A stretch of 64,000 bases of DNA, taken from assembly GCA_021846045.1 (NCBI GenBank), contig JAJZCM010000002.1:16585-80584 (forward strand). Reading direction: 5' to 3'. Below the pieces are notes generated by a model. It saw only the letters and a list, made by a program, of their open reading frames with translations, did no database searches and was not told where the DNA came from. The translations under genes were made by a program, and so were the position numbers. This stretch comes from a bacterium (lineage in GTDB: Bacteria > Elusimicrobiota > Elusimicrobia > UBA1565 > UBA9628). Within the stretch, counting starts at the first letter, position 1; every line of letters begins with the position of its first letter. Below are positions 1,021 to 17,589 of this stretch, piece by piece.

Positions 1021-1136
1021 TTTTTTCTGTAACATTTTGTTTATAACCTTGAAATCTTTTTGTGACGCGCATCTGTTAATCTAAATAGTGACGGCACACA
1101 ACGGTACGACATCAAGATTGACAACAGCTCACATTA

Positions 1137-2717: not shown

Positions 2718-2771
2718 CCAAGGCTATTATGATACTTTCCAAAGACTTAGTAAAATGAAAAAGGCGCGGAC

Positions 2772-3980: not shown

Positions 3981-3997
3981 GGACTGTCCCTATTTGT

Positions 3998-4495
3998 TTA
4001 TAAAACGGCTTCGATTTCTTTGGTGAGTTCCTTGGACAGCGGCTCAACTTGGGGGCCGAAACGTCCTATAATGCCGCCGTCACGACCGACCAAAAATTTC
4101 GTGAAATTCCAAGGAATGTCTCCGTTGCGCCCCGATTCAGTGGTCAAAAACTCATAAAGGGGGTGGAGTCCTTCGCCCTTGACTTTGATTTTGGCGAACA
4201 AGTCAAAACTGACGGAATATTTCGTCCGGCAGAAAGCGGCGATTTCCTGATTGGTCCCCGGCTCTTGAGATCCAAATTCATTGGCGGGAAAAGCTAAAAT
4301 TTTAAACCCCTTCTCCGCGAATTTTTTATAAAGCTTTTCTAATCCGTCATATTGCGGGGTGTATCCGCAGAGAGAAGCGACATTGACGATTAAAAGAACT
4401 TGTCCTTTATAATCGGCCATAGATTTCTTTTGTCCGTCGATTGTATCGAACGCGAATTGATAAATCTTCCCCGCCGCCGCCGTTTTTTCTCCCAT
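3998..4495 (-). CDS. glutathione peroxidase
   Basis: GPx core (LIVNVASLCGYTPQYDGLEKLYKKFAEKGFKILAFPANEFGSQEPG). The track ORF extends to 4696, but that extension overlaps tRNA-Gly, so the internal Met (MGEKTAAAGKIYQF) at 4495 is the likelier start. Confidence 0.75.
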   Translation of the reverse strand: MGEKTAAAGKIYQFAFDTIDGQKKSMADYKGQVLLIVNVASLCGYTPQYDGLEKLYKKFAEKGFKILAFPANEFGSQEPGTNQEIAAFCRTKYSVSFDLFAKIKVKGEGLHPLYEFLTTESGRNGDIPWNFTKFLVGRDGGIIGRFGPQVEPLSKELTKEIEAVL

Positions 4496-4659
4496 AATGC
4501 GCCCTCTCATTTCCCTAATTTTTTCCTGCGCCCCAAAAATAAGCCCGCCGATGAAAAGCGCCGCTTTTTGCCCCCAATTGTTTTCCATTTTTTGATTGGA
4601 ACGGATGAACGCCTCTATTTTATATAATGAAAGGGCCGCTTCGCGCGGCTCGCTTCTAT

Positions 4660-4733
4660 GCGGGCGTGGTTCAATGGTAGAACGGGTCCTTGCCAAGGAT
4701 CAGACGAGGGTTCGATTCCCTTCGCCCGCTCCA
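4660..4733 (+). tRNA. tRNA-Gly (anticodon GCC)
   Basis: Cloverleaf GCGGGCG...CGCCCGC acceptor, anticodon loop TTGCCAA, T-arm GGTTCGATTCC, 3' CCA encoded. Confidence 0.85.
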
Positions 4734-4755
4734 GATTCCCAAAGGCATTTCCTCG

Positions 4756-4789
4756 ACGACAGCGGCGTCTAATCTGTCGTTTTTATTTT
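4756..4789 (+). terminator. rho-independent terminator downstream of tRNA-Gly
   Basis: Stem ACGACAG / CTGTCGT followed by TTTTATTTT. Confidence 0.5.
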
Positions 4790-4908
4790 CCGGCGGCTGA
4801 TCCAATTTAGGCGCTGGTGTCCATATGGTGGCTGAATTCAACCTGTAAGTGCAACACCCAAGGTTATGAAGGCCTCGCTGGGTTTTTCTTGAACGCTAAA
4901 AAATAGCA

Positions 4909-5004
4909 TTGACGGGACATGATTTTGTGGTATACTACTAATACAACCCCATTCCCTTCGGGGGGTGGGCGCGAAGCCATCCGCAAGGGTGGCTTCTGCT
5001 TTTT
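4909..5004 (+). promoter_or_regulatory. promoter plus structured 5' leader (repeat A1) of the NYN nuclease gene
   Basis: TTGACG-17nt-TATACT sigma70-like promoter, then a leader with hairpins (CCCTTCGGGG; GAAGCCA...TGGCTTC) ending in a T-run immediately before the ATG. A ~75% identical copy (A2) lies at 12306-12420. Confidence 0.5.
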
Positions 5005-5619
5005 ATGAGAACATTCGTTTACGTGGACGGCTTTAACCTCTACTACCGCGCCTTGCGCAATACGCCCTACCGGTGGCTTGACCTCTCCAAACTCGCGCAA
5101 ATTCTGTTGCCCAAGCATCAAATCCACAGGATTCGCTACTATACGGCCCGCGTTACCGCTCGCCCCGGCGATCCTGATCAGCCGACCAGACAGCAGTTCT
5201 ATCTGCGGGCCTTGGCGACGATTCCCAACCTTTCCATCACCTACGGCCAATTCCTAACGCATAAAAAGAAAATGACTTTAGCCTCCGATCCGGCTAAAAC
5301 CATCGAGGTGCTCAAGACGGATGAAAAAGGCTCCGATGTGAATTTAGCGACCCACTTGATCTACGAGGCCATGCGTGATGAGTTTGACGCGGCCGTCGTC
5401 GTCTCGAACGATTCAGACCTAGCGGAACCCATTCGTATCGTTACTCAGGAGGTTCACAGGAAAGTAGGCATCCTGACTCCGGCCAGAATCCCGACACGTG
5501 AATTGCTTAAATATTGCACCTTCTATAAGCCGATACGAAACGCCGTGCTGGCGGCCAGCCAATTTCCTCTGGAACTTGAGGACGCTCATGGCAAGTTCCG
5601 CAAGCCGGACTCCTGGTAG
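5005..5619 (+). CDS. NYN-domain (LabA-like, PIN-fold) putative nuclease
   Basis: MRTFVYVDGFNLYY..., EKGSDVNLATHLIYEA, VVVSNDSDL: canonical NYN/LabA motifs. Confidence 0.7.
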   Translation: MRTFVYVDGFNLYYRALRNTPYRWLDLSKLAQILLPKHQIHRIRYYTARVTARPGDPDQPTRQQFYLRALATIPNLSITYGQFLTHKKKMTLASDPAKTIEVLKTDEKGSDVNLATHLIYEAMRDEFDAAVVVSNDSDLAEPIRIVTQEVHRKVGILTPARIPTRELLKYCTFYKPIRNAVLAASQFPLELEDAHGKFRKPDSW

Positions 5620-5624
5620 ATTCT

Positions 5625-5859
5625 TGGTGTCTATCCGGTGTCCATAACAGTCTAATTCCAGCAAAGAGGCGGGCTTGTGATTATCGCATTTCCCGACGGC
5701 GGTCATAAACCGTCAGAATCGGTCAAAGTTTAGATTTCCCCTCGCCCGCTGGGGCATCTTCAAGGCCGGTTCAGGTGCGCTCGATCTCGATTCCGAATTC
5801 CCCGTCCTCTTCGTGGACGTGAAGCGTCAGCGCCCGGCAACAGACCTGGCAGTCCTCGT
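5625..5859 (+). repeat. 235-bp perfect direct repeat, copy B1 (contains orphan 3' end of CPXCG zinc-ribbon gene)
   Basis: Identical base-for-base to 13442-13676. The reverse strand encodes ...EDCQVCCRALTLHVHEEDGEFGIEIERT*, the C-terminus of the gene at 13588-13902. Confidence 0.9.
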
Positions 5860-5860
5860 C

Positions 5861-7276
5861 TCAAGGGATGTTCCCCTCGGGGCATGGGGGTTTGGATTCC
5901 GCCCTTTTTTTCCAGTCTTCGATAAGGGATACGATTTCTGGACGGGATGTCTCTGCAAAGTCCTCCGCATTGAGCCCATGATTCTCCTTGGCATCAACGT
6001 CGGCCCCAGCTTGGAGAAGAAGGGAGATCACGTTTGCATGACCTTTGCCAGCCGCCCAGATCAGCGCGGTGAACCCCTTCATGTTCTTGGCATTGACATC
6101 GGCCCCGGCCTTGAGAAGAAGGGGGATCACGTTCACATGACCATTATTAGCCGCCCACATCAGCGCGGTGGACCCACCCACGGTCCTAGCATTGACATCT
6201 GCCCCGGCCTGGAGAAGAGGGGGGATCATGTCCGCATGACCATCGTGGGCCGCCCACATCAGTGCGGTGTTCCCATCATTATCCCCGGCATTGACGTCAG
6301 CCCCAGCCTTGAGAAGAAGGGGGATCACGTTCGCATAACCACTGTGAGCCGCATTCATCAGCCCGGTGTCCCCATCCTTGTCACTGGTATTGACATCGGC
6401 CCCGGCCGCAAGAAGAAGGGGGATCGCGTTCGCATGACTCTGGGCAGCCGCATATATCAGTGCAGTCCTCCCACTCTTGTTCCCGGCATTGACGTCAGCC
6501 CCAGCCTTGAGAAGAAGGGAGATCGTGTCCGCATCACCACCCAACGCCGCCCACATCAGCGCGGTTAACCTATTATTGTCCCTGGCATTGACATCAGCTC
6601 CGGCCTTGAGAAGAGGGCGGATCACGTTCGCATAACCACTGTGAGCCGCCAACATCAGCGCGGTGGCCCCCTCCTCGCCCCTGGCATTGACGTTGGCCCC
6701 AGCCTTGAGAAGAAGGGAGATCACGTTCGCATGACCATTGTCAAGCGCGAACATCAGCGTGGTGTACCCATCATCGCTCTTGGCATTGACATCGGCCCCG
6801 GCCTGGAGAAGAAGGGGGATCACGCTCGCATGACCATTGCTAAGCGCACGCATCAGCGCGGTGAGCCCAAGCTCGCCCTTAGCATTGACGTTGGCCCCAG
6901 CTTGGAGAAGAAGGCGGACCACGTTCGCATGACCATCCGCAGCCGCATACATCAGTGCGGTGTCCCCACCCACGCCCCTGGCATTGACGTTGGCCCCAGC
7001 CTTGAGAAGAATGGGGATCACGTTCGCATGACCACTATCAACCGCCCATATCAGCGCGGTCCACCCAACCTTGTTCCCGGCATTGACATCGGCTCCGGCC
7101 TGGAGAAGAATGGAAATCACGTTCGCTTGACCTTGTTGAGCCGCATTCATCAGCGCGGTGGTCCCGTTCTCATCCTTAGCGTTGACGTCCGCGCCTTTTT
7201 CTATGAGGGTCAGAATTTTCCCGACGTTTTCCTCCTTACAGGCATCGATGAAACTTTGATCTGCTCGTTTTTCCAT
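5861..7276 (-). CDS. ankyrin-repeat protein (about 13 ANK repeats)
   Basis: 471 aa with tandem 33-aa units (G.TALM.AA..GH..V...LL.AGADVNA...). The stop codon sits exactly at the B1 repeat boundary. Confidence 0.85.
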   Translation of the reverse strand: MEKRADQSFIDACKEENVGKILTLIEKGADVNAKDENGTTALMNAAQQGQANVISILLQAGADVNAGNKVGWTALIWAVDSGHANVIPILLKAGANVNARGVGGDTALMYAAADGHANVVRLLLQAGANVNAKGELGLTALMRALSNGHASVIPLLLQAGADVNAKSDDGYTTLMFALDNGHANVISLLLKAGANVNARGEEGATALMLAAHSGYANVIRPLLKAGADVNARDNNRLTALMWAALGGDADTISLLLKAGADVNAGNKSGRTALIYAAAQSHANAIPLLLAAGADVNTSDKDGDTGLMNAAHSGYANVIPLLLKAGADVNAGDNDGNTALMWAAHDGHADMIPPLLQAGADVNARTVGGSTALMWAANNGHVNVIPLLLKAGADVNAKNMKGFTALIWAAGKGHANVISLLLQAGADVDAKENHGLNAEDFAETSRPEIVSLIEDWKKRAESKPPCPEGNIP

Positions 7277-7346
7277 TTGCTCTAACCCCCTCGTCCGTTC
7301 TGAGATTTTTTCTGAACTACCAAGACAAATCGCTCAAGGATTAATC

Positions 7347-7781
7347 TCATTGGAGAAACCGATACAACTTACTATATTTTTCCAACTGCCTTCTTCTTTC
7401 TCGATAATTTCGATGTCTTTCCACGGCATTGGGATTGTAAGGATTCCAATTATCCCGAACCTTCTTAATGCGATAATTCTCCGCCGCTGTTTTAAAGATT
7501 GGAATCCCTGCTATGGAAGACGCTCCATTCTCAAAACTCCGTCTAATGAATTCACGGGATTCTTTTTTGGGGAGAGTCGCGTATTGAATGACAACTTGGC
7601 CGTTTTTCTCTTTTCGCAATTCGGCTAATTGTTCTTTGATGGAGGATATCTCGCTGTGCAACCTCGCGATAGAACCTGTTTGAGAACTTGTATGCGGCTT
7701 TTCAGAGGTTTTTATCGTTATTAACTCTGCTGATGCCGAACCGGCAGTCACTAATAAAAACAGAATCCAATTTTTTGACAT
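7347..7781 (-). CDS. small secreted hypothetical protein
   Basis: The ORF has signal-peptide-like MSKNWILFLLVTAGSASA at an internal Met. The mature part is charged and Arg-rich. Confidence 0.4.
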   Translation of the reverse strand: MSKNWILFLLVTAGSASAELITIKTSEKPHTSSQTGSIARLHSEISSIKEQLAELRKEKNGQVVIQYATLPKKESREFIRRSFENGASSIAGIPIFKTAAENYRIKKVRDNWNPYNPNAVERHRNYRERRRQLEKYSKLYRFLQ

Positions 7782-7807
7782 GTGATTATCCCCCCTACGC
7801 TTAATCA

Positions 7808-8188
7808 TTATTTCCTTTTAGAAATTGCTGAAGCCGCCATCGCCAAGAAAACTCCAATAAAAAACCACTTTATTATGAAAAAAAATACTTTAAAGATACC
7901 GCCCAAGACGCTAAGCGTAGTATCCCCAGCCTTACTCCATTCTGACGCTTGAGAAGAGTTTTTCCTTAACTTCGTTTCCGGCATCTCCACGGCTTCCATT
8001 CTTTGAGACATCGTCGTCTGGCAGCTTGGGATAAAAAACTTCATGTTTGCTTCTTGATGAGCTTTGAGTTCTGCCCTTATTTTACTGCTGCAATTCAAGA
8101 TATTGATGTTGTTATCAATATTATCCGTATCAATCTCCGCCTCCACGTTATTATCCCAATCCTGCTCAAGGGCCTCATTAAAATTCAT
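7808..8188 (-). CDS. hypothetical tail-anchored membrane protein
   Basis: 126-aa ORF with acidic N-terminus and a single C-terminal TM (FKVFFFIIKWFFIGVFLAMAASAI). Confidence 0.35.
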   Translation of the reverse strand: MNFNEALEQDWDNNVEAEIDTDNIDNNINILNCSSKIRAELKAHQEANMKFFIPSCQTTMSQRMEAVEMPETKLRKNSSQASEWSKAGDTTLSVLGGIFKVFFFIIKWFFIGVFLAMAASAISKRK

Positions 8189-8198
8189 AAACCACCCC

Positions 8199-8531
8199 CT
8201 ATTTCATCCCCAACTCTCCCAATAGATTGCCAACAATGATCCCGGAATCGGATTTCCAGTTCTCGATCCTAGGGTCTGCTTGATGCCCTAAAATTCTCCT
8301 TCCTTGGTAAAAAGTCAAGCTTTTTTGAATTCCACGATTTAATCGTGTCGTGGCAACTCTCGCGAGCCGGCAATACCTTAAAAACAACGCGACTTGTCTT
8401 AAGGTAAGTGGAAAAAGACTCATGTTAATATCTTTTTCAAAGGCCGCGACTGTCTTTTTAACGTCTTCCAACAACATTTCCCGTTCTCTATGCCGGAACA
8501 TCGCGATTTTCCTTGTGTTAGGTGACATCAT
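8199..8531 (-). CDS. hypothetical small protein (possible HTH)
   Basis: 110-aa ORF tightly packed between neighbours on the same strand. No recognisable family. Confidence 0.3.
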   Translation of the reverse strand: MMSPNTRKIAMFRHREREMLLEDVKKTVAAFEKDINMSLFPLTLRQVALFLRYCRLARVATTRLNRGIQKSLTFYQGRRILGHQADPRIENWKSDSGIIVGNLLGELGMK

Positions 8532-8546
8532 TATCTTAACCCCCTT

Positions 8547-10007
8547 TTATCCCCAAGCGTTATACTTGCTGTTGATATATCTTGAAAAATCACTTTCTTT
8601 GGAAAGAAGCCTGCTCTTATCCTCAAAGTAATAATCGTTATAACGATCCAAATTAATCGTATTTTCTTCGGTGACTATTCCAATTTCCTTGGCTTGGCGT
8701 ATAATAAGCCCCCATTTTTCTTTTGAGAGAGTTATCCTTTTGGATATAAAATCCTGGATATACTCGCCCGCGTCTACACCTTCTTCATGCTTTAAACAGG
8801 ACACCGCGCTATTAAAAGCCATAATAAAGAGAGACCAATCTTTCCAAATCTTAAAGGTATACGATGACTTTGTGTAACCGCTTGGTCTTCCGTAAATCAT
8901 GCCTCTGTCCGGCTTTTCCATCTTTTCTAACTCCTCCAAGCCTTCAACCCGAGTCATTCTAAACTCTGGAGTAGGCGCCGCCTTTATACTGACGGTTTTA
9001 GGAGGAACGCAGGTCTGCACGTGGAATAATCCCTCGCCTTCCGGGGATTTTACCCACGCGGACCCTATCGCTTCGGAATCCGTATTATCAGGGCATTCCC
9101 CCAGTATGGACATATAATCTGTATTCGTAGGAAGCCTAAAAGCTATCCTCGTTGGAAAATTAACTTTTATGGAATTTGATACCGCCGCAACCGTGGGACG
9201 CTGCGTCGCCACTATTAAATGAATCCCAGCCGCTCTCGCCAATTGACCAAGGCGAGTAACGCAACTCTCAATCATAGCCCCATCCCCACAGCTTAATAAT
9301 TCCGCGAATTCATCAATAATAACGACTATCCTCGGCATCTTCTTCCCAGATTGGATATATTGATGAATATTCAAATATCCCTCTTTTCCAAAAATGGATA
9401 ATCGCTGCTTCATTTCGACGATGAGAAGCCCCAATATTTTTACGCAGTCTACAGCGGATTTAACAACGCTATACGGGGCGATTGGATTATATAGGAAGGC
9501 ATCATTAGCATAACAGGTGAAATCAACGCCTTTTGGGTCCATGAGAACAATCCGAACTTCGTTCGCGGTATTGGCCCTTCTTAACGCCTCGATCACGCAC
9601 TTAATGTAAGAAGATTTTCCAGAACCGGAGCTCCCCGCGATAAGCAAATGCGTGGTCTTAAGAAAATCAAAGAACCTTAATTTTCCAAACGCATCCATCC
9701 CAACCGGAATTGATAATGATGAAAAACCCTCCGGCACGGATTTTATTACGTCCTCAAATAACAAAGAGATGGGGGCATGGGACCGAAGCTCAAATCCGAT
9801 CAAGCCTCGCTTATACGGAACATGGAGGCGGATATCGCATCCAATAGCGACGGAGATATCCAGCAGTCTTGATTTTAAAGAAGAGACTCTTAATGCGGGA
9901 GAAACCGCTAATTCGTGAATCTCTGAATTAAGCGTTTTAACGATGCCGCTGGATTTTAAATCAAACCCATAAGACTTTAGAACCTCTTCCAAGTCTTTCC
10001 CAAGCAT
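8547..10007 (-). CDS. FtsK/SpoIIIE-family DNA-translocase-like ATPase with unknown C-terminal domain
   Basis: Walker A GSSGSGKSS, Walker B VVIIDEFAELL, FtsK motif VATQRPT. The ~160-aa C-terminal extension has no recognisable family. Confidence 0.75.
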   Translation of the reverse strand: MLGKDLEEVLKSYGFDLKSSGIVKTLNSEIHELAVSPALRVSSLKSRLLDISVAIGCDIRLHVPYKRGLIGFELRSHAPISLLFEDVIKSVPEGFSSLSIPVGMDAFGKLRFFDFLKTTHLLIAGSSGSGKSSYIKCVIEALRRANTANEVRIVLMDPKGVDFTCYANDAFLYNPIAPYSVVKSAVDCVKILGLLIVEMKQRLSIFGKEGYLNIHQYIQSGKKMPRIVVIIDEFAELLSCGDGAMIESCVTRLGQLARAAGIHLIVATQRPTVAAVSNSIKVNFPTRIAFRLPTNTDYMSILGECPDNTDSEAIGSAWVKSPEGEGLFHVQTCVPPKTVSIKAAPTPEFRMTRVEGLEELEKMEKPDRGMIYGRPSGYTKSSYTFKIWKDWSLFIMAFNSAVSCLKHEEGVDAGEYIQDFISKRITLSKEKWGLIIRQAKEIGIVTEENTINLDRYNDYYFEDKSRLLSKESDFSRYINSKYNAWG

Positions 10008-10414
10008 AACCTTACCCCCCTTATAGAAGTTTAAGCTCTGGACTTTCGTTTTAACGCTTTGTTTATTGCATCAACCGAGCAAGGGTGCAGAACCAACATC
10101 TCGGTTGCTTAGGCCAGTGTAGCCATAAGTTAAACTAAAAAACACCCAGCGTTACTACGCTACAAAAGTGGTGGGTAATGGCCGAAATACGCAACTTCTT
10201 CAACCATCCGCTTTATCCGTGAAATATCTTTTATCAATTCCTCAACACAACCTCACCCCAGGATTATAGACCCCATCTTGAACTTTTTCAAGGGGGCGAA
10301 AAATTTGCGCAACGGAAGGGTTATGAGTTAAACTAAAAAATCGCTCGGCCGGGGTGGGTCCAGGTAGGTGGGACGCGACAGGCGGAACAAAGCCGACAAT
10401 GGGAGGGAACCTAA

Positions 10415-10882
10415 GTGCATTATATTGACGACAATCTTGTGGAAGGCGAGTCCGTTATTTTTCAAACAACACTCCACTGGATAACCGCGTGTTTGCCGCT
10501 TATCGGCAGTCTGTTTTTTTGGCTCTGCGCTTGGCTCGAAATCGGTCTCAATGAGGGCTATCCTGCACTGGGCTACTTTCTAATGGGGGGCCTAATTGCC
10601 TCAGCGCCCTTCATTGCAATATCTACTTCGGAATTTGGAATTGCGACGCAAAGGGTGATGATTAAGGTCGGGCTCCTTCAGACGCATACTCTTGAGATAT
10701 TCCTGTCCAAGGTGGAGTCCATATCCGTGGACCAAACGATTGTCGGATGACTTTTAGGATATGGGACACTGGTGGTCAAAGGGACTGGCGGAACAGCAGA
10801 GCCGTTCCCATGAGTAAAAGATGCTTTTGAATTCCGCAAGAAAGTGCAAGAGCAAATTGCAAGGACGAAAACAGAAAAATGA
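10415..10882 (+). pseudogene. bPH_2 (YdbT-like bacterial PH) domain membrane protein interrupted by two in-frame TGA codons
   Basis: Two TM helices then RVMIKVGLLQTHTLEIFLSKVESISVDQTIVG-[TGA 10748]-LLGYGTLVVKGTGGTAEPFP-[TGA 10811]-VKDAFEFRKKVQEQIARTKTEK-[TGA 10880]. The conserved bPH_2 motifs continue in the same frame across both internal TGAs. Confidence 0.55.
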
Positions 10883-10966
10883 AGCTCTCAAAAAAGTTTT
10901 CTCCTCCGGGAACTCCCAGATTGCGAAGATGAGTGTGAGATGAATGAATCAAAGGAGAAAAAACGA

Positions 10967-11254
10967 ATGCCGACCTATAAAACATACACGTGCTACCAGT
11001 CCCCCATGGGACCGCACACTGTCTCTGTGCCCGAATGGCAAGAGCCGCCGGATGATATATGTCCGGAGACTGGCATCAAGAGACACAAATGGGTCATTGC
11101 CACCAATGCTCGCTCGGGAACCTGGAACTGTGGCGAATGCGCTAAGCCAATAGGAGTAAATGATTGCGTCCTCTGTGAGAATGGTTGCGGACAAAAATTC
11201 CACAAAACTTGCTTCGAAAAGCACAATCGAGGGGCGCATTCCGGGCAAGCGTAA
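10967..11254 (+). CDS. Cys-rich RING/PHD-like zinc-finger protein
   Basis: AAGGAG RBS 7 nt upstream. C-x2-C-x7-C-x2-C-x3-C-x4-H-x2-C-x3-H pattern (NCGECAKPIGVNDCVLCENGCGQKFHKTCFEKH). Same frame as the bPH_2 ORF, TAA stop. Confidence 0.45.
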   Translation: MPTYKTYTCYQSPMGPHTVSVPEWQEPPDDICPETGIKRHKWVIATNARSGTWNCGECAKPIGVNDCVLCENGCGQKFHKTCFEKHNRGAHSGQA

Positions 11255-11272
11255 AGGGTTTGAGACAATAGT

Positions 11273-11581
11273 ATGAACATAAAATCGGTTGCGCATCTAT
11301 TTGAGTCCTCAGGCACTGCTTTAGGTGCCGTAAAGGATTTGCAATGGAATGAGGGCCAACAAAAATTTGTGAAGGTCCAGAGCATAGGCGGCGCAGTGGA
11401 ACTAGTGCCCGGATTCCAAGAAAGCGGCGAAATTACTTTCTACATCAACAAACCTCTCAGCGTAGCAAAAACGTATCGGCTCAAAATGCTTAGCAAGGCC
11501 ATTCCAATTAAAATAACGCACGTGGAAGGTCCCGGTGGGGATGGATTCTATTTTGTCCGTGCCAGTCAAATGCAGGCGTAG
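11273..11581 (+). CDS. hypothetical protein
   Basis: 102-aa ORF directly downstream of the Cys-rich gene. No recognisable motif. Confidence 0.3.
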   Translation: MNIKSVAHLFESSGTALGAVKDLQWNEGQQKFVKVQSIGGAVELVPGFQESGEITFYINKPLSVAKTYRLKMLSKAIPIKITHVEGPGGDGFYFVRASQMQA

Positions 11582-11584
11582 CCC

Positions 11585-11932
11585 ATGGGCTGTTGCGTGG
11601 AATGTTTGGCGGCCTCTTGGTGGTGGATTTTTGGGGTGGCATTCAGCGCCTTTTGGAGCATTCGTAGCTGCTGTCTCTTTACGAAAGAATATCGAGATTG
11701 TGAAAAATTTTGGTGGGGTAGCTACCAATTCATTCTCAATTTTTCTTGCTCCTTTGCTGGCTGGATATGCCTTCATATTCTGGAATTACGTTTCATGTCT
11801 GTGGGTCATGTCAATCAACTTAGCTGGGCAGACTTCGCTCTGTTTTTGCTTGCCCTGCTTGGCGTTACCGGATCGCTACCACAGTTTTTAGTCAAGTTGC
11901 CGGAGGCCATTGTCAAGGCGACCAAGAGCTGA
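11585..11932 (+). CDS. hypothetical Cys/Trp-rich membrane protein
   Basis: 115-aa ORF 3 nt after the previous stop. An overlapping alternative frame (11535-11891) also looks membrane-like, so the frame assignment is uncertain. Confidence 0.25.
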   Translation: MGCCVECLAASWWWIFGVAFSAFWSIRSCCLFTKEYRDCEKFWWGSYQFILNFSCSFAGWICLHILELRFMSVGHVNQLSWADFALFLLALLGVTGSLPQFLVKLPEAIVKATKS

Positions 11933-12305
11933 ACGAAGAAATGAGGAGAACTATGCCAAGAACAAGAAGAGGGACACCACTGATCCGGAGAAAGATAGTT
12001 GAACACGTAGCCTATCCGGAATGCAAGACGGAATTAGCCGTCAGCATCAGAGTATTGAGACGCAGGTAGCCGCGCCGCGAAGTTGCCGGAGGCTGAATAC
12101 GGCCTTCAGTCAGATGAAACTTGGAGCGCACCGTGGAATCACCCCTTTCGCTTTCTTCCCTCTTGTCTTGTGATGCCGAACATACATCTCTCTCATGTAT
12201 TCCCACCTCGCATTGGGACTCATCAAAATGACCTCCCGGATCCAAAAAGAAACCTTCAGGAAGCATTATACCTCGCCCTTTTTTCGGTAACATTTTCAAA
12301 TGAGT

Positions 12306-12420
12306 TGACACGACGACATGATTTTGTGGCATACTAATTACACAACCCCCAACCCTAGTGGAAGGGGTGCGAGGCCGCTCGAAAGGACGGCTTCTGCATT
12401 TTATGAGAACATACGTTACG
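12306..12420 (+). promoter_or_regulatory. promoter + structured leader repeat A2 with truncated NYN-like start (MRTYV...)
   Basis: TTGACA...CATACT followed by a leader homologous to A1, including the GAGGCCG...CGGCTTC hairpin and T-run. ATG at 12403 opens only a 16-codon remnant. Confidence 0.45.
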
Positions 12421-12606
12421 CAGACGGTCGCAAAGACTCTTGCTTTTTTTGATACAACGAATCATCATTAGGGGAGATAAGATGACCCATCAAGAGATTT
12501 ATGAGAAGGAGTATGGCGAAAAAGGTTGGGAGAAGCTCAATTCTAGGATTAAGAAAATCTTCAAGCGTATTGATTCTTTGCCGTCTTTAAGCGACAAACA
12601 AGTTAA

Positions 12607-12831
12607 TTGATTTCGTGGGCATTGACAATCTTTATAATCTGTCTTATACTGAAGTGTATTCGACAAGGGGATGTTAACATGAGTAGCAAAAAATTCTTGA
12701 TTAGCGCGATGGGTAGAAAGAATTATCTCAACCTGTCGAAAAGCTTCAGAGAAAATATCGATCTCTTAGACAAGCTCCCACCGACCGCCAAGCCGGTCAC
12801 ATTGAAGCAGATCGAAAACGCCCTGAAATAG
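12607..12831 (+). CDS. small hypothetical protein, possible antitoxin-like partner of the PIN gene
   Basis: 74-aa ORF (the likelier start is the internal MSSKKFLISAMGRKNYLNL at 12679) ending 15 nt before the PIN gene. An extra 42-codon ORF at 12481-12609 precedes it. Confidence 0.3.
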   Translation: MISWALTIFIICLILKCIRQGDVNMSSKKFLISAMGRKNYLNLSKSFRENIDLLDKLPPTAKPVTLKQIENALK

Positions 12832-12846
12832 CGCTATACAAGAGCG

Positions 12847-13404
12847 ATGGGCCAATACTGTTACTTGTTTGATGCAAGTGCCTTGGTTGCGCTGTTGCTC
12901 AAGAATCCCGATGGCGATGTGAAAATTGCCAAAGGGAAAATTTTAAAATTGCTTGCCAATGGGCGCAAGAATGAAAATTCGCTGTTTTTCGTTCCAAATA
13001 TTTGTATGGCCGAGGTATCTTCGGCTTTGGCCAAAATTTTTCTAGCAGACGGCTATACAGAACAAAGAGAGAACTCGTATCGACAGCATGTTGAATTTCT
13101 TCTGGAGTGGGTTTCATCGAAGAAAAGGCATGTAATACAAACCTACGCTCTCAAACGCTCACATCTTGTCGATATCGAACATATTTTTATTGCCGACCGG
13201 AAGTTGCCTGGGAGAAAAGGGAACCCGCTGAGTGGGCATGATGGCATCATAATTGCCATGGGGCGTGTCCTTGGAAGAACATATGGGAACGGGAACGTAA
13301 TAATTTTAACTCTTGACGGAAGAATGGCTGACGTTTGCGTCCATAACCGGGATTTTTTCCCCCATGCCATAGACCTTGCCAGACAAGAAATTCCTGGCGC
13401 CTAG
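12847..13404 (+). CDS. PIN-domain (VapC-like) putative nuclease
   Basis: N-terminal YLFDASALVALL, later AEV and SGHDGIIIAMG acidic motifs, consistent with a PIN fold. It ends 37 nt before repeat B2. Confidence 0.5.
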   Translation: MGQYCYLFDASALVALLLKNPDGDVKIAKGKILKLLANGRKNENSLFFVPNICMAEVSSALAKIFLADGYTEQRENSYRQHVEFLLEWVSSKKRHVIQTYALKRSHLVDIEHIFIADRKLPGRKGNPLSGHDGIIIAMGRVLGRTYGNGNVIILTLDGRMADVCVHNRDFFPHAIDLARQEIPGA

Positions 13405-13441
13405 AAGTTTTGCGTTGATTGCCGCCGCTCGTATGTCTGAG

Positions 13442-13676
13442 TGGTGTCTATCCGGTGTCCATAACAGTCTAATTCCAGCAAAGAGGCGGGCTTGTGATTA
13501 TCGCATTTCCCGACGGCGGTCATAAACCGTCAGAATCGGTCAAAGTTTAGATTTCCCCTCGCCCGCTGGGGCATCTTCAAGGCCGGTTCAGGTGCGCTCG
13601 ATCTCGATTCCGAATTCCCCGTCCTCTTCGTGGACGTGAAGCGTCAGCGCCCGGCAACAGACCTGGCAGTCCTCGT
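13442..13676 (+). repeat. 235-bp perfect direct repeat, copy B2 (native 3' end and downstream region of the CPXCG gene)
   Basis: Identical to 5625-5859. Confidence 0.9.
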
Positions 13677-13902
13677 AGAGAATTTGGCCCGCGTCATCGG
13701 ATGAAACCTTGATCTCGAAGCTTTCGTCGCAGTAGGGGCATTCAACCAATACGTCTTGCTCCAAGACCTCGTCTCCGGATTGAGTGGATATTTCTTCGAG
13801 GACGGATTCGAGAACCTGTCCGTTTGAATAGGCGGGGGCTTCCGGCTGAGATTTTTGCCGCTCCTTTTTTACGTGGCCTGCGGTTTTAGTTTTGCTTTTC
13901 AT
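13588..13902 (-). CDS. CPXCG-motif cysteine-rich zinc-ribbon protein with Lys-rich N-terminal extension
   Basis: VECPYCDESFEIKV...YEDCQVCCRALTLHVHEEDGEF matches the CPXCG family. The last 28 codons lie inside repeat B2. Confidence 0.6.
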   Translation of the reverse strand: MKSKTKTAGHVKKERQKSQPEAPAYSNGQVLESVLEEISTQSGDEVLEQDVLVECPYCDESFEIKVSSDDAGQILYEDCQVCCRALTLHVHEEDGEFGIEIERT

Positions 13903-13977
13903 CTCTTCACCTCTTAGACTTTCTTCTTTTTCAAAATATAATGCACGAACTCATTTTGCGCAAGACCCAGAAAGGAC

Positions 13978-14247
13978 CTAGTGTAGCGTTCCGAAAATAA
14001 CTGGACAATGGAAGGCCTAGATTTGAGGGCAGTTCGAGGCGCGACGAGGACGCAGGCCGAGGCCTGTAACCGAGGAGCAACGAAGAAATACCCCGAAGAT
14101 AGGCCTTCCCTTCGGGTTGGGCTATTTTGCCCAGCTTCTATGTTGCTCGGCGCTTACATAGCTCAAGCTATGCTCGCTTCTCGCGCCTTGAATCTGGCCA
14201 AACTAGCCCCAACCATTGTCCAGTTATTTTCGGAACGCTACACTAGA
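13978..14247. mobile_element. MITE-like element with 34-bp perfect terminal inverted repeats
   Basis: CTAGTGTAGCGTTCCGAAAATAACTGGACAATGG at 13978-14011 is the exact reverse complement of 14214-14247. The interior is further imperfectly palindromic. No coding capacity (the 80-aa ORF 14008-14250 is spurious). Confidence 0.6.
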
Positions 14248-14282
14248 TAAAATGATAATATCGGCAAGGAGGGGGAAATTTT

Positions 14283-17006
14283 ATGTCAAAATCCAAGGAT
14301 AGTTTTAAAGCCGCGTCAATTCTCGACGTCGACGGAAAAAAATATCATTATTACGCTCTTGATGCCTTGTCCCGACAGGGCTTTGATTTATCAAGGCTCC
14401 CATTTTCCTTGAAAGTATTTTTGGAGAATCTCTTGAGGTTTGAGGACGGGCAAAACGTCAAGGCTTCCGATATCGAGGCCTTGGCCTCGTGGACAAAAAA
14501 ATCCGCGTCCGGGCGCGAGGCGTTTTTTATGCCCGCCCGCGTCTTAATGCAGGATTTTACCGGCGTTCCGGCGGTGGTGGACTTGGCTGCGATGCGGGAC
14601 GCGGTCAAAATGCGCGGCGGGGACCCGCAGGCGATTAACCCCTCGATTCCGGTCGATTTGGTCATTGACCACTCGGTCCAGGTTGATTTTTTTGGAACTG
14701 CAGATTCTCTGGCTAAAAACGCGGAGATTGAATTTTCGCGCAACCAGGAGCGCTACGCTTTCCTTAAATGGGGGCAAAAGGCGTTTCGTAATTTCCGCGT
14801 TGTTCCGCCGGAGACCGGCATCTGCCATCAAGTCAATTTGGAATATTTGGCGAAGGTCGTCTGGTCTCAAGAAATCGAAGAGAAAACCTGGGTTTATCCC
14901 GACACCTTGGTCGGCACCGATTCCCACACGACGATGATTAACGGGCTCGGCGTTTTAGGTTGGGGAGTGGGCGGAATCGAGGCCGAGGCGGCGATGTTGG
15001 GACAATCCTTGTCCATGTTGATTCCCGAGGTTGTCGGCTTTAAGCTTACCGGGCGCTTGCCAGCCGGGTCCACCGCTACCGACGCGGTTTTGACCGTCAC
15101 CGAGATGCTGCGAAAAAAAGGCGTGGTCGGGAAGTTCGTCGAATTTTACGGCCCGGGGCTTTCTTCTCTTCCGGTCGCCGACCGCGCGACCTTGGCCAAC
15201 ATGGCGCCGGAATACGGCGCGACCGCAGGCTTTTTCCCGGTTGATAGCCAGACGCTTAAATATCTTCATTTAACCGGGCGTGCGGAAAAAGAAATCGGCT
15301 TGGTTGAGGCCTATTGCAAAAAACAGGGCCTTTTTAGGGAAGACTCTTCTCTGGAACCGCATTTTTCAAGCTCTCTCTCGCTTGATTTGGGGACCGTCGA
15401 GCCTTCCGTCGCCGGGCCCAAGCGTCCGCAGGACCGCGTGGTTTTATCCGAGGTCAAGAAATCTTGGAAGGCGGCCTTGGAGGTTCTGGTTAAGGAAAAA
15501 GACAAAAAGGGAAACTTGCCCGCTCCCATGGGAACCACAGTTGAGGTTAAAGTGGGCGGGGAAACGGCGTCTCTCTCGCATGGTTCGGTCGCTATAGCGG
15601 CGATCACCTCCTGCACGAATACGTCAAACCCCGCCGTTCTTGTCGCCGCCGGGCTTCTCGCTAAAAAAGCCGTGGAGAAGGGCCTAAAAGTCAAACCTTG
15701 GGTCAAGACAAGCCTGGCCCCGGGGTCAAAAGCCGTTGCGGAATATCTTAGAGCTTCCGGGCTTTCAAAATATTTGGACGAACTCGGCTTTCAACTGGTG
15801 GGCTACGGCTGCACAACCTGCATTGGAAATTCGGGTCCCCTTCCCGAACCCGTGGCCCAGGCCGTTTCGGACAAAAATTTGATTGTCGCGGCGGTTTTAT
15901 CCGGAAACCGGAATTTCGAGGGGCGCGTCAACGCCTTGGTCAAGGCCAATTATTTAGCCTCGCCGCCCTTGGTCATCGCCTATGCCTTGGCCGGAAATAT
16001 CGAGATGGATTTAAAATCCGATCCCTTGGGAAAAGACGCCAAGGGCGCGCCGGTCTATCTCAAGGACATTTGGCCGACGCACGAGGAAGTTTCAAAAATC
16101 ATATCGGATTTCGTCCACCGGGAACTTTTCGTTAAAACCTACGCCGATGTTTTTTCCGGAGGAAAAAATTGGCGCTCGATTGAGGTTTCAAAGGGGGACG
16201 TCTACGACTGGGCGATGAGTTCGACCTACATCCGCAAGGCCCCTTATTTCGATCATTCCGAAAGCCGGGACGGAAAAGATGTCGCCGGCGCTCGGGCGCT
16301 GGCGGTTTTCGGCGATTCCATTACCACCGACCATATCTCCCCAGCCGGGTCTTTCCCGAAAGATTCTCCTGCGGGAAAATACCTGCTTGAGCGCGGTGTT
16401 GATTTTAGGGATTTCAACTCGTACGGTTCTCGGCGCGGCAACCACGATCTGATGACGCGGGGCGCTTTCGCCAACACCCGCATTAAAAACCTGATGCTCG
16501 ACATCTCCGGCGGATATTCCTTGGTTCTGCCCGAGAAAAAACAGACGACCATTTTCGAGGCCGCCGAGGAATATCTCAAGCGGAAGGTTCCGCTCATTAT
16601 TTTGGCCGGAAAAGAATACGGCTCCGGCTCCAGCCGCGACTGGGCGGGAAAAGGCCCGGCCCTTTTAGGGATAAAGGCCGTCATCGCCCAAAGTTTTGAG
16701 CGCATTCATCGCTCGAACTTGGTCGGCATGGGCATTCTGCCGCTGGAATTTTTGCCGGGCCAAAACGTCCAGTCCTTGGGCCTGACCGGCTTTGAGACCT
16801 TTTCCATTGAAGGCATCAAGGCGTTGAGCCCCAAGAAAGAGTTACGGGTCGCGGCCAAAAAAGAAGACGGAAAGACGACCGAGTTTAATGTCCTGGCCCG
16901 CATTGATACCGCAGTTGAGCTTAAGTATTGGAAGTTCGGCGGCATCTTGCCGTATGTCCTTGAGCAAATTCTTGCCCAGGGCCAAAAGGAAGCCGTGGGG
17001 GCGTAG
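14283..17006 (+). CDS. acnA: aconitate hydratase A
   Basis: 907 aa with aconitase/IRP family hallmarks (SGNRNFEGR, Cys ligand regions CTNTSNP / GCTTCIGNSGP). Confidence 0.9.
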   Translation: MSKSKDSFKAASILDVDGKKYHYYALDALSRQGFDLSRLPFSLKVFLENLLRFEDGQNVKASDIEALASWTKKSASGREAFFMPARVLMQDFTGVPAVVDLAAMRDAVKMRGGDPQAINPSIPVDLVIDHSVQVDFFGTADSLAKNAEIEFSRNQERYAFLKWGQKAFRNFRVVPPETGICHQVNLEYLAKVVWSQEIEEKTWVYPDTLVGTDSHTTMINGLGVLGWGVGGIEAEAAMLGQSLSMLIPEVVGFKLTGRLPAGSTATDAVLTVTEMLRKKGVVGKFVEFYGPGLSSLPVADRATLANMAPEYGATAGFFPVDSQTLKYLHLTGRAEKEIGLVEAYCKKQGLFREDSSLEPHFSSSLSLDLGTVEPSVAGPKRPQDRVVLSEVKKSWKAALEVLVKEKDKKGNLPAPMGTTVEVKVGGETASLSHGSVAIAAITSCTNTSNPAVLVAAGLLAKKAVEKGLKVKPWVKTSLAPGSKAVAEYLRASGLSKYLDELGFQLVGYGCTTCIGNSGPLPEPVAQAVSDKNLIVAAVLSGNRNFEGRVNALVKANYLASPPLVIAYALAGNIEMDLKSDPLGKDAKGAPVYLKDIWPTHEEVSKIISDFVHRELFVKTYADVFSGGKNWRSIEVSKGDVYDWAMSSTYIRKAPYFDHSESRDGKDVAGARALAVFGDSITTDHISPAGSFPKDSPAGKYLLERGVDFRDFNSYGSRRGNHDLMTRGAFANTRIKNLMLDISGGYSLVLPEKKQTTIFEAAEEYLKRKVPLIILAGKEYGSGSSRDWAGKGPALLGIKAVIAQSFERIHRSNLVGMGILPLEFLPGQNVQSLGLTGFETFSIEGIKALSPKKELRVAAKKEDGKTTEFNVLARIDTAVELKYWKFGGILPYVLEQILAQGQKEAVGA

Positions 17007-17073
17007 CCGGGACAATCCTGGAGCCCGAAAGCGCGCGGCTAAATTTGTCCATATTATTCTGTCACGGAGACTA

Positions 17074-17589
17074 ATGGCCCTTCCTTCCTTCGCCGCAATT
17101 GATTTCGAGACCGCCAATCCCTCGCGCGCAAGCGCCTGCGCGGTGGCGGTGGTCCGCGTGAAAAACGGGCTTATCAGCGGCCAAAAAATCCAGATTCTAA
17201 AACCCGCAGACGCAGATTTCGCGTTTACCTACATTCATGGAATCACCCCGGAAATGACGGCTCGACAACCGACTTTCGGGGATTACTGGCCGGAACTTAA
17301 AAAACAGTTGGACGGGGTTGATTTTTTGGCCGCGCACAATGCGTCTTTTGATTCTTCCGTCCTGAAGGCCTGCTGCGGGGAGGCCGGGGTGGATTGTCCC
17401 GAATATTTATTTCGCTGCACGGTTAAGGAATCTCGCCGCGCTTGGGGACTCTACCCGACCAAACTTCCCGATGTCTGCCGTCATTTGGGGATTTCTCTTA
17501 ACCATCATGACGCTCTTTCCGACGCGATGGCCTGCGCTCAAATTATGATTGAAATTTTAAAATCGCCTGCGGGGCCGGGCAGCGTTTAA
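17074..17589 (+). CDS. DEDDh 3'-5' exonuclease (DnaQ/epsilon-like)
   Basis: AIDFETANP (Exo I), FLAAHNASFD (Exo II), HHDALSDAMA (Exo III). Start taken at MALPSF rather than the longer ORF start. Confidence 0.75.
   Translation: MALPSFAAIDFETANPSRASACAVAVVRVKNGLISGQKIQILKPADADFAFTYIHGITPEMTARQPTFGDYWPELKKQLDGVDFLAAHNASFDSSVLKACCGEAGVDCPEYLFRCTVKESRRAWGLYPTKLPDVCRHLGISLNHHDALSDAMACAQIMIEILKSPAGPGSV

Follow-up and report, generated by a model that had tools for sequence, protein, structure and literature searches.

RESULTS

Repeats and genes at the locus

The window, the whole 64,000-nucleotide stretch of DNA that was analyzed, holds two pairs of repeats described in an earlier note, and both pairs are genuine. 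Repeat comparison within the window shows the B copies (B1, 5625-5859; B2, 13442-13676) to be 100% identical over 235 nt, whereas the A copies (A1, ~4909-5030; A2, ~12305-12428) are homologues of ~80% identity with two ungapped blocks at 81-83%, so that the note's view of the two repeat types as differing in age holds. The homology between A1 and A2 takes in a promoter, two hairpins, a U-run, and an ATG, and reaches 26 nt into the NYN coding sequence. B1 is a copy of the NYN/CPXCG intergenic region together with the final 89 nt of the CPXCG gene. The chromosomal features are as follows.

4909..4936, + strand: promoter of sRNA copy 1, TTGACG, 16-nt spacer, extended -10 TGnTATACT (promoter scan)
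4937..5004, + strand: sRNA copy 1, A1 (covariance model R1, 69.7 bits, E 2e-16; fold; terminator scan)
5005..5619, + strand: NYN-domain nuclease gene, HEC-09 family, 204 aa (Pfam NYN, 44.9 bits, cut-off 24.2)
5625..5859, no strand: B1, left direct repeat of the insertion (repeat comparison; the empty site has one B)
13442..13676, no strand: B2, right direct repeat, running on into the intact CPXCG gene
13588..13902, - strand: chromosomal Cys-rich CPXCG gene with its 3' end within B (Pfam Cys_rich_CPXG, 50.1 bits)

The NYN-domain gene after A1 is intact, as the note had it, its Pfam score lying well above the cut-off. Its product matches PADLOC HEC-09 over the full length (E 2e-42) and phrog_7929 (E 2e-70), and four aspartates of catalytic type, D8, D111, D136, and D138, are invariant in the family. 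No Shine-Dalgarno sequence precedes the window's gene; at other loci, NYN genes begin with the near-cognate start codons AUA, AUC, AUU, or UUG, several of them behind GGAG-type sites.

A small RNA linked to NYN genes

A1 consists of a single-stranded 5' tail, a first stem (P1, 9 bp, UUCG loop), a second stem (P2, GNRA loop), and, directly against the NYN ATG, a U-run that is predicted to act as an intrinsic terminator. The predicted fold (-36.2 kcal/mol, z -4.5) comprises hairpin 1 and a terminator-like hairpin 2. The conserved leader hairpin of the earlier note is structured and real, but there are two conserved hairpins rather than one, the first being UUCG looped in A1. The sRNA is predicted to be ~65 nt long, with an intrinsic terminator at its end and a sigma-70 promoter. 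Its consensus has a 5' tail of the AUAUCCCCCC type, a P1 that is usually UUCG looped, a YGCGARGCC junction, and P2 with a U-run; related loci have a -10-like box whose end lies 8 to 13 nt 5' of the C-run.

Covariation in the stems is abundant. RNAalifold with 30 seed sequences finds compensatory changes at 16 of 18 pairs, and in an 83-sequence alignment, with 95.8% of cells paired, they occur at 17 of 18. Double-change cells in that alignment number 236, versus 52 in shuffles and 16 to 46 in slid controls, counts that are inflated to some degree, as the alignment was fitted to the model and the sequences are related. Variation is restricted to compensatory stem changes, with the 5' tail and junction highly conserved, and frequent G-U pairs make the structure strand specific. 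A tandem-repeat scan found a single unit and no repeat array in the RNA. The sRNA has no entry in Rfam 15 and no description in the literature searched.

Covariance model R1 matches 78 of 80 NYN loci, in genomes of many phyla. The earlier note had proposed such a search, and the leader does recur beside NYN genes with abundant covariation. A DNA-only metagenome scan yielded 76 motif copies: 38 in tandem upstream of an NYN gene, 18 next to an NYN gene of opposite strand, 15 without NYN, and 5 unassigned. The sRNA is thus usually directly upstream, but divergent, convergent, and solitary copies also occur, and because of these it behaves as a separate gene. Contigs L096, L114, and L146, which are viral or mobile, carry well-preserved orphans with promoters. 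We hold with great confidence that A represents an NYN-linked sRNA gene that has been conserved. It belongs to the NYN system itself and is not a generic flank.

The note had also read the leader as an attenuator or other cis-regulatory RNA. That reading was right in that the RNA is structured, conserved, and equipped with a terminator. The RNA is more than a cis attenuator, however, and is also present in divergent, convergent, and NYN-less copies. That the RNA acts purely in cis as a leader, whether terminator, attenuator, or autoregulatory site bound or cut by NYN, and does nothing as a free sRNA is suggested by half of the unbiased sample. These copies stand immediately 5' of NYN in the same orientation, and their median gap of 12 nt from sRNA end to NYN start leaves no space for another promoter, so that the RNA is the nuclease's leader in those loci. 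However, the ~25% of copies on the strand opposite NYN cannot be leaders, ~20% lack NYN within 400 nt and yet score 65 to 71 bits and keep their promoters, and no alternative (antiterminator) pairing is conserved in the folds or the RNAalifold alignment. We therefore consider a leader of this kind unlikely.

A mobile insertion between the B copies

The segment between the B copies has the following features.

5860..13676, equivalently 5625-13441, no strand: inserted mobile element, 7,817 bp, unique part plus one B (empty-site comparison)
5861..7276, - strand: ankyrin-repeat protein, 471 aa, 12 repeats of 99 nt (Pfam Ank families; tandem repeats)
7347..8531, - strand: three small ORFs of 153, 126, and 110 aa (ORF list)
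8547..10007, - strand: FtsK/SpoIIIE-like ATPase, 486 aa (Pfam FtsK_SpoIIIE, E 4e-28; phrog_1358, E 2e-53)
10415..10882, + strand: bPH_2 membrane-protein gene, broken by two in-frame TGA codons (Pfam bPH_2)
10940..11932, + strand: three small ORFs, encoding a 104-aa Cys-rich C1-like zinc-finger protein, a 102-aa protein, and a 115-aa protein

Another assembly of the same organism (L001) is 100% identical to window positions 1-5859 and 13442-23436 and has a single B; lacking exactly the 7,817-bp segment, it represents a precise empty site. The element sequence also closes as a cycle in an assembly graph, in a k141 contig (L007) of 7,958 bp, that is, 7,817 plus a terminal repeat of 141 nt. The filled junction NYN-B-ankyrin is present in the independent assemblies L002 and L006 as well as in the window. 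B is, in our view, very probably the marker of a mobile insertion, and A is present twice here because an element bearing the diverged A2 copy was inserted between the two B copies.

Besides these genes, the element bears A2 and a VapBC-like PIN module of two genes. No Pfam or PHROG family was found for the 153-, 126-, and 110-aa ORFs. The bPH_2 match has an E value of 5e-11 with both TGA stops read through. For the FtsK-like ATPase, the sole full-length homologue found is P0127, at 42% identity. A related element, L137, shares the gene order FtsK, 110 aa, 146 aa, and Sel1/Ank, and homologues of the 153- and 110-aa ORFs adjoin its FtsK-like gene. L137 too terminates in its Sel1/Ank gene, as the window's element does with the ankyrin gene.

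No recombinase domain was found in element ORFs of about 65 aa and longer on either strand, and no attC-like sites were found. A circular form would have integrated by one crossover within B, a Campbell-type, RecA-dependent event; this homologous route is assumed solely for want of an integrase among the genes recognized on the element, and the perfect 235-nt repeat suggests homologous over site-specific recombination. A host-encoded or unrecognized recombinase may nevertheless be the agent.

As B is longer than k, short-read graphs are alike for an integrated element and for an empty chromosome plus a free circle, and the integrated state depends on the assemblers' resolution of the repeat. 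The element could then be only a free circle with a B copy, joined to the chromosome by the assemblers by way of the 235-nt repeat, a reading in keeping with the empty path in L001 and the cycle in L007. At least three assemblies (the window, L002, and L006) connect NYN, B, and ankyrin over the full B, and we judge such an artifact improbable. Even if the integrated state were an artifact, the repeats and the element's A2 and B copies would stay real.

The element's sRNA copy and PIN module

From A2 to B, the element is colinear with A1-NYN-B of the chromosome and represents a diverged version of that host locus.

12305..12335, + strand: promoter of sRNA copy 2, weakened: TTGACA, 19-nt spacer, TGnCATACT (read from sequence)
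12336..12402, + strand: sRNA copy 2, A2 (R1, 40.7 bits, E 3e-8)
12403..12471, + strand: NYN-start remnant, 22-codon ORF (sequence comparison with A1)
12482..12610, + strand: s1, 42-codon ORF (ORF list; no family match)
12622..12650, + strand: promoter of the s2-PIN operon, TTGACA-17-TATACT, 11/12 matches (promoter scan)
12679..12831, + strand: s2, 50-aa candidate antitoxin (C terminus conserved upstream of the PIN homologue in L011)
12847..13404, + strand: VapC-like PIN-fold protein, 185 aa (predicted structure)

The promoter TTGAC-17-TATACT that the note gave to both A copies fits A1 but not A2, with its 19-nt spacer and a -10 of CATACT; the promoter scan, which allowed spacers of 16 to 18 nt, listed only the former. 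The segment GACATGATTTTGTGG of the A2 promoter region is the same as in A1. P1 of A2 is cut down to 4+2 bp and has lost the UUCG loop, while P2 is retained and precedes the U-run; it has a single mismatch and a single compensatory change, from A-U to G-C. The predicted fold is -24.5 kcal/mol (z -2.3), and the R1 score of 40.7 bits, versus 69.7 for A1, ranks among the lowest in the family; the A2 body is more diverged than those of distant relatives. The remnant of the NYN start seen by the note is real, although its ORF has 22 codons rather than 16: 26 nt are homologous, with a 1-nt deletion that shifts the frame, and unrelated sequence follows.

Judged from its weak promoter, degraded P1, low score, and frameshifted NYN stub, A2 is most probably what is left of an sRNA-NYN unit in decay. 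Alternatively, it may be a functional decoy, an orphan antidote sRNA with which the element would neutralize the host NYN, as phage pseudo-ToxI does with ToxIN. The element is inserted directly beside the host NYN gene and has kept the sRNA while losing the nuclease, the compensatory change preserves P2, and the promoter-bearing orphans on viral or mobile contigs offer parallels. Yet divergence beyond that of distant relatives while a frameshifted stub persists is a pattern of decay, and orphan frequency (3/6 in viral contigs versus 15/71 in metagenomes) involves too few cases for comparison. We find an anti-defense decoy doubtful and less likely than a relic.

The note's PIN-domain gene scores 15.7 bits against Pfam PIN, under the cut-off of 23.6, but has a PIN/VapC fold in its predicted structure (AF2 pLDDT 89), the best PDB matches being VapC/PIN proteins (probability 1.0, E 2e-5 to 1e-3). 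Residues D9, E56, D109, E111, and D132 are invariant in this family, which is very rare. The s2 C terminus, LDKLPPTAKPVTLKQIENALK, is conserved 5' of the PIN homologue in L011, whose PIN is 67% identical. Since the s2-PIN operon has a strong promoter of its own, A2 does not obviously drive the PIN gene.

Cassette exchange, with A and B as flanks of a site that swaps PIN-fold cargos and the A hairpin as a cis attenuator of the nuclease that follows, captures part of this arrangement. In the element copy, the VapBC-like module takes the place of NYN coding sequence between +27 and a point just beyond the stop, and with the rest colinear this resembles precise cargo replacement; in A1, moreover, the terminator immediately precedes the ATG. 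However, B is accounted for as the direct repeat of the 7,817-bp insertion with its exact empty site, and A adjoins NYN genes, not other cargos, in many phyla. NYN relatives L377-L380 have A without B, and L011, the other PIN homologue with flanks, has neither. The separate promoter of the PIN module and the failure to find a recombinase or attC-like sites also argue against exchange, which we regard as highly improbable.

DISCUSSION

We lean modestly toward explaining the locus as a whole by a conserved sRNA-NYN unit and a separate mobile insertion bearing a relic copy of that unit. The sRNA appears to be new, an undescribed small RNA gene beside one NYN nuclease family in many bacterial phyla.

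How the two parts work together can be sketched from their layout. In tandem loci, A1 included, the nuclease start lies only 0 to 14 nt past the U-run, and NYN mRNA would therefore arise only when transcription runs past the terminator of the sRNA. NYN would also be poorly translated, with no Shine-Dalgarno sequence here and weak start codons elsewhere. Together, read-through transcription and poor translation would give much sRNA and little nuclease; the sRNA ends, its abundance, and the read-through are what we infer from sequence. The sRNA is proposed to be the nuclease's cognate RNA partner. By analogy with type III toxin-antitoxin systems, it may be an inhibitor, or antitoxin, of NYN, an idea that we advance tentatively and at somewhat less than even confidence. 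A positive cofactor of the nuclease (guide, activator, or specificity scaffold) would also account for obligate linkage in any orientation, which suits a ribonucleoprotein as well as a toxin-antitoxin pair, and for the strong conservation of the 5' tail and junction. Still, there is no variable "spacer-like" segment, changes being confined to compensatory stem positions, nuclease expression would be throttled by weak starts behind a terminator, as is typical of toxins, and an inhibitor would account more readily for the orphans that mobile elements carry. A cofactor role is accordingly quite unlikely.

Type III toxin-antitoxin systems have a Rho-independent terminator before an endoribonuclease gene and are found on mobile DNA, with links to phage defense. 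ToxIN, CptIN, and TenpIN show the same order of promoter, structured RNA, terminator, and nuclease gene, and their RNA exceeds the toxin mRNA, as the layout here would also lead one to expect. Unlike type III antitoxins, the sRNA is a single unit rather than a tandem array, the nuclease has an NYN/PIN-like fold and not a ToxN-type one, and the RNA gene occurs on either strand; our system is known from sequence alone. Phage phiTE is said to carry a pseudo-ToxI, an antitoxin mimic. Like it, A2 and the orphans of L096, L114, and L146 are the RNA half on a mobile element without the nuclease, although A2, known only as sequence, looks degraded.

The s2-PIN pair resembles type II VapBC in its small upstream ORF, PIN-fold protein with VapC toxins as best structural matches, conserved acidic residues, and own promoter. 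It differs in that the PIN protein, at 185 aa, has insertions, falls below the Pfam PIN cut-off, and is of a very rare family, and in that the 50-aa s2 is without a recognizable DNA-binding domain. The insertion recalls Campbell-type integration of an episome via cloned host DNA, as well as elements such as phage 21 and e14 at icd, which supply a new 3' end to the gene that they target. As there, the direct repeats hold a host gene 3' end (CPXCG), the empty site is exact, and the target gene is left intact; in contrast to phage 21 and e14, no integrase was found on the window's element, and its repeat is 235 nt long and perfect.

The closest known system for the nuclease is HEC-09, a PADLOC candidate defense gene, with which the window's NYN shares its protein family, NYN/MARF1-like with conserved aspartates. 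HEC-09 was described by Payne et al. as a single protein gene (bioRxiv 10.1101/2024.01.29.577857), and a term search of that paper found neither "ncRNA" nor "non-coding RNA." In the sole published test, from the same paper, HEC-09 with its native upstream region gave no defense against the phages tried. In contrast to the published description, the gene here travels with a conserved sRNA.

A conserved structured RNA accompanies HEC-09-type NYN genes

The two copies of the promoter and leader, A1 before the NYN gene (5005-5619) and A2 on the inserted element, can be aligned over a stretch that begins at the -35 region and ends 26 nt into the NYN frame, with ~80% identity. Both leaders fold into two hairpins (P1 and P2) followed by a U-run and then the ATG, at -36.2 kcal/mol for A1 (z -4.5) and -24.5 kcal/mol for A2 (z -2.3). 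As to a transcription attenuator or riboswitch, with its antiterminator or ligand pocket, the computed folds and the consensus structure show just two simple hairpins.

The same two-hairpin element recurs upstream of the genes of 80 NYN homologues, sampled from Latescibacterota, Armatimonadota, Acidobacteriota, Chloroflexota, Proteobacteria, Verrucomicrobiota, Gemmatimonadota, Planctomycetota and others. A seed alignment of 30 sequences has compensatory changes in 16 of 18 predicted pairs, and the covariance model built from it, R1, recovers the motif at 78 of the 80 loci; within the window its only matches are A1 (69.7 bits) and A2 (40.7 bits). Among the 83 matches that were aligned, the paired cells make up 95.8% and double changes are seen at 17 of 18 pairs; double-change cells number 236, compared to 52 in shuffles and 16-46 with slid partners, in an alignment that was itself fitted to the model. 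G-U pairs are frequent, and the structure is therefore strand-specific. In most loci a -10-like box ends 8-13 nt upstream of a C-run, and a U-run follows P2. We read A as a transcribed RNA of ~65 nt that ends in an intrinsic terminator, with predicted transcript ends. An earlier note had suspected a regulatory RNA here and proposed folding and a covariance-model search as the check; the suspicion was borne out and can be extended, as the alignments show a conserved, covarying predicted small RNA (sRNA) gene linked to HEC-09 NYN genes. A search with a short DNA pattern covering P2 only returned mostly generic terminators, 3 of 79 being confirmed by the model, and was discarded.

The RNA is apparently new. 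Run at the gathering threshold, Rfam reports only tRNAs in the whole window, and Rfam 15 has no match to A1 at E<=10 in a permissive search, only chance matches far below gathering for locus L049 and none at gathering score over 16 loci. The permissive searches, of A1 and of the best-scoring family member, thus gave no relevant match, and the sRNA is undescribed in the searchable literature, including the paper naming the HEC-09 protein family. R1 offers a simple covariance model for annotating the sRNA-NYN module.

The sRNA as leader and as independent gene

Placement of the sRNA relative to NYN is not fixed. In 11 loci of the genome set, from Acidobacteriota, motif and NYN diverge on opposite strands, and 1 locus is convergent. 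Second copies occur at one NYN locus in three (L030, L041 and L065). As starting from the protein biases the sample, we also scanned metagenome contigs by DNA pattern alone, which gave 76 copies confirmed by the model.

Placement of sRNA copies in the DNA-only metagenome sample, and positions at the double-copy loci
38/76, directly upstream of NYN, same strand
18/76, adjoining NYN, opposite strand (about 12 convergent, 7 divergent)
15/76, no NYN gene within 400 nt
5/76, at contig ends, position not assignable
L030, 2857-2983, tandem copies
L041, 994-1066 and 2912-2986, two copies
L065, 2926-2991 and 3672-3736 (flank gene), two copies

The orphan copies score 45-71 bits and keep their promoters. 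Among their neighbors are AbiEii-like, Abi_2-like and ParA-like ORFs, defense or plasmid genes by labels read from translations rather than domain searches. Viral contigs hold both NYN-linked copies (L103, L112 and L152) and clear orphans (L096, L114 and L146). Because opposite-strand, second and orphan copies occur, the sRNA is best read as an independent gene, yet one in close linkage with NYN. For tandem loci, the distance from sRNA to start codon has a median of 12 nt and is typically 11-14 nt; in such loci the sRNA would also be the leader of the nuclease, which would be made only by read-through of the terminator.

Two placements involve tRNA genes. The viral orphan in L146 (1610-1734) lies directly behind a sequence resembling the 3' end of a tRNA gene (a putative tRNA), and in the window the sRNA-NYN unit is found 175 nt past a tRNA-Gly (4660-4733). 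Such placements may hint at a unit that travels on tRNA-targeting islands.

The NYN nuclease and its expression

The NYN protein (204 aa) matches Pfam PF01936 over residues 2-171 (44.9 bits, gathering 24.2) and phrog_7929 (E 2e-70). Its match to PADLOC HEC-09 is full-length (E 2.1e-42, residues 2-204 on profile positions 3-202 of 203), which places it by sequence in that family. Across 21 homologues, with identities down to 57%, D8, D111, D136 and D138 do not vary; they make up the acidic set expected of an active PIN-like nuclease. Homologues number 7,952 at E <= 0.001 among 8,000 candidates scored; the nearest named ones are from Elusimicrobiota MAGs.

The window's NYN gene has no Shine-Dalgarno sequence, and 8 nt separate its ATG from the terminator stem. 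At other tandem loci, Met-1 often aligns with UUG, AUA, AUC or AUU, an approximate assignment extrapolated from tblastn, and near-cognate starts sit 6-7 nt after a GGAG-type site (for example, in L292, L291, L271 and L334). These weak starts suggest selection for very weak translation, and expression of NYN looks deliberately weak; a terminator combined with poor initiation is the pattern that a gene would have if its product must be kept scarce.

HEC-09 is a candidate defense gene whose sole published test gave no protection against the phages used (bioRxiv 10.1101/2024.01.29.577857). A candidate defense nuclease of thousands of genomes in many phyla comes with a conserved, covarying sRNA absent from Rfam 15 and the searchable literature. 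HEC-09 should be studied as a two-part module, which may help explain the missing phenotype of the protein in that test.

A polymorphic 7.8-kb insertion

The second repeat pair, B1 and B2, is identical over its 235 nt, so that both of the repeat pairs described in the earlier note exist. When the NYN protein was looked up across other assemblies, one contig, L001 (GCA_027401925.1), proved to have one B rather than two. L001 matches the window at 100% identity over 1-5859 and 13442-23436 and lacks exactly 7,817 bp, with the gene order sRNA, NYN, B, CPXCG (the chromosomal Cys-rich gene) and aconitase at a precise empty site. With a single B and identical flanks in L001, the window therefore holds a 7,817-bp insertion flanked by B, and the cassette-exchange locus first proposed gives way to insertion of a mobile element.

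Features of the element (window coordinates)
5625-5859, B1
10128-10142 and 10326-10340, exact 15-nt repeat AGTTAAACTAAAAAA, 198 nt apart
10415-10882, + strand, bPH_2 (bacterial PH-domain) membrane-protein gene with two in-frame TGA
12622-12650, near-consensus promoter of the PIN module
13442-13676, B2
Gene list: ankyrin-repeat protein; three small ORFs; FtsK/SpoIIIE-like ATPase; bPH_2 gene; Cys-rich protein; more small ORFs; A2, s1, s2 and PIN (s1 and s2 being small ORFs)

The filled left junction, NYN-B-ankyrin, is present in two contigs of independent origin, L002 and L006. A k=141 assembly supplied contig L007, which is equal to window positions 5625-13582; its 7,958 bp are 7,817 + 141, and it has a 141-nt terminal repeat, so that in the assembly graph the element forms a closed loop. 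An integrated element and an empty chromosome accompanied by a free circle give the same picture in short-read graphs, which on their own do not tell the two apart. What is observed is a polymorphic 7.8-kb insertion bounded by B.

B consists of the final 89 nt of the CPXCG gene together with the intergenic region; as the 3' end of the gene lies inside B, the target gene stays intact. No recombinase or integrase domain was found in any scanned ORF of the element, on both strands. Given this and the long perfect repeat, the simplest mechanism would be a single homologous crossover of a circular form, Campbell-type, through B. Direct repeats and a precise empty site are shared with integrative elements that use a site-specific recombinase, whereas the integrase or recombinase is not. 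A dif-like Xer site in B was considered, as GGTGTCCATAA resembles a XerC arm by eye, but no XerD arm follows and the candidate was dropped. The locus is naturally polymorphic, with filled, empty and circular states of a small integrase-less element, and the mechanism of integration is therefore directly testable from existing read sets.

Other repeats were seen in these contigs. The end of L002 (11296-11346) is a 51-nt inverted copy of part of B that looks like an assembly artifact at the repeat. A perfect 34-nt inverted repeat (13978-14011 and 14213-14246) encloses 201 nt between the CPXCG and aconitase genes; it has the look of a MITE or a very long hairpin and is also in L001. A small dispersed, REP-like family of GC-rich hairpins (GGATTCCGGCTTTCGCCGGAAT...) lies at 20325-20365, 43806-43888 and 54490-54572, with an extra copy just upstream of the window, in L001 1906-2050.

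Relatives and gene content of the element

The element's ATPase is FtsK/SpoIIIE-like (Pfam E 4e-28; phrog_1358 E 2e-53) and has one full-length relative only, at 42% identity, in a search of 5.8 billion proteins; no relatives of the element were found in viral contigs when sought through this protein. The relative sits on a 5.6-kb contig, L137, in the same order of FtsK, 110 aa, 146 aa and Sel1/Ank repeats. With a single full-length ATPase relative of matching gene order, the element is thus a member of a rare family of small plasmid-like elements. Since L137 additionally encodes a primase-polymerase (Prim-Pol, E 4e-29; L137 3-452, - strand) and a MerR-type HTH protein, both absent here, the window's element may be a reduced, non-autonomous derivative. 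The AGTTAAACTAAAAAA pair, for which chance expectation is none, lies between the element's divergent gene blocks, which are 400 nt apart, and could represent iterons, an origin or a regulatory region.

The bPH_2 gene has no frameshift, its Pfam match (E 5e-11) runs across both stops, and every assembly of the element has the same sequence here. Either the gene has recently become a pseudogene (CGA to TGA) or its stop codons are read through; TGA recoding was judged unlikely, as the neighboring ankyrin ORF itself terminates on TGA.

A2 departs from A1 in several respects. The earlier note had assigned both copies a TTGAC-17-TATACT promoter and A2 a 16-codon NYN remnant. In A2 a 19-nt spacer separates the -35 box from the -10 box, which is CATACT, so that a promoter scan permitting 16-18 nt spacers lists A1 only, and NYN homology ends after 26 nt with a 1-nt deletion that leaves an ORF of 22 codons. 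Its P1 is down to 4+2 bp without the UUCG loop, and in its P2 one pair is mismatched, one is G-U, and one has changed from A-U to G-C in a compensatory way. The promoter segment GACATGATTTTGTGG, common to A1 and A2 and not to closer NYN relatives, indicates a recent common origin of the two, and the RNA body of A2 is more diverged than the RNA bodies of relatives with NYN proteins at 76-84% identity to that of the host. A2 could be an antidote carried by the element against the host's NYN, which is possible but less likely; the diverged RNA body, longer promoter spacer, weaker -10 box and frameshifted stub make A2 look like what is left of an sRNA-NYN unit after replacement of its nuclease. 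The search for a donor locus found none, the close NYN relatives in L377-L380 having A1-like sRNAs and no B or PIN homology.

Having its own promoter, the PIN module is not obviously driven by the A2 flank that the earlier note had made part of its unit. The PIN-domain assignment held for the fold and not at the level of sequence: the 185-aa protein scores 15.7 bits against a Pfam PIN cut-off of 23.6 (E 0.023), whereas its predicted structure (pLDDT 89) has PIN/VapC proteins as all of its top 40 Foldseek matches (probability 1.0, target TM-score 0.41-0.76), and the model shows a predicted PIN fold. D9, E56, D109, E111 and D132 are invariant. Homologues numbered four in an indexed word search and 122 cluster representatives among 1.84 billion in a full profile search. 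The 50-aa s2 has no recognized domain; its C terminus is kept upstream of a 67%-identical PIN homologue in L011, in one comparison. We regard s2-PIN as a probable divergent VapBC-like pair with its own promoter, sharing with VapC toxins the fold, the acidic residues and a small upstream partner, although the Pfam sequence cut-off is not reached.

Comparison with type III toxin-antitoxin systems

In type III toxin-antitoxin systems, the antitoxin RNA is a tandem array of direct repeats and the toxins belong to the ToxN, CptN or TenpN families. The sRNA-NYN module resembles them in having an RNA gene and a nuclease gene in one unit with an intrinsic terminator between, as in A1 and in half of the copies in the DNA-only sample; this layout is absent in the ~25% of copies that lie on the opposite strand. 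The differences are that A1 and A2 contain no tandem repeat array, second copies being only occasional, and that the sole Pfam family here is NYN and the sole PADLOC match HEC-09, not ToxN, CptN or TenpN. Because two defining features fail, the repeat array and the toxin fold, the module is not a type III member despite its similar layout.

Under the mechanism that we propose, NYN would be transcribed by read-through of the sRNA terminator, and the sRNA would inhibit the nuclease in the manner of a type III antitoxin. We put forward, as a tentative reading more likely to be wrong than right in its full form, that a HEC-09-type NYN protein and a ~65-nt sRNA make up a widespread, unrecognized RNA-protein toxin-antitoxin or defense module, that mobile elements and phages carry orphan sRNAs as antidotes, and that the 7.8-kb element is an example or a recently lapsed one. 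Such a module would be a single-unit counterpart to type III systems and would add a new nuclease fold to RNA-controlled toxin-like systems.
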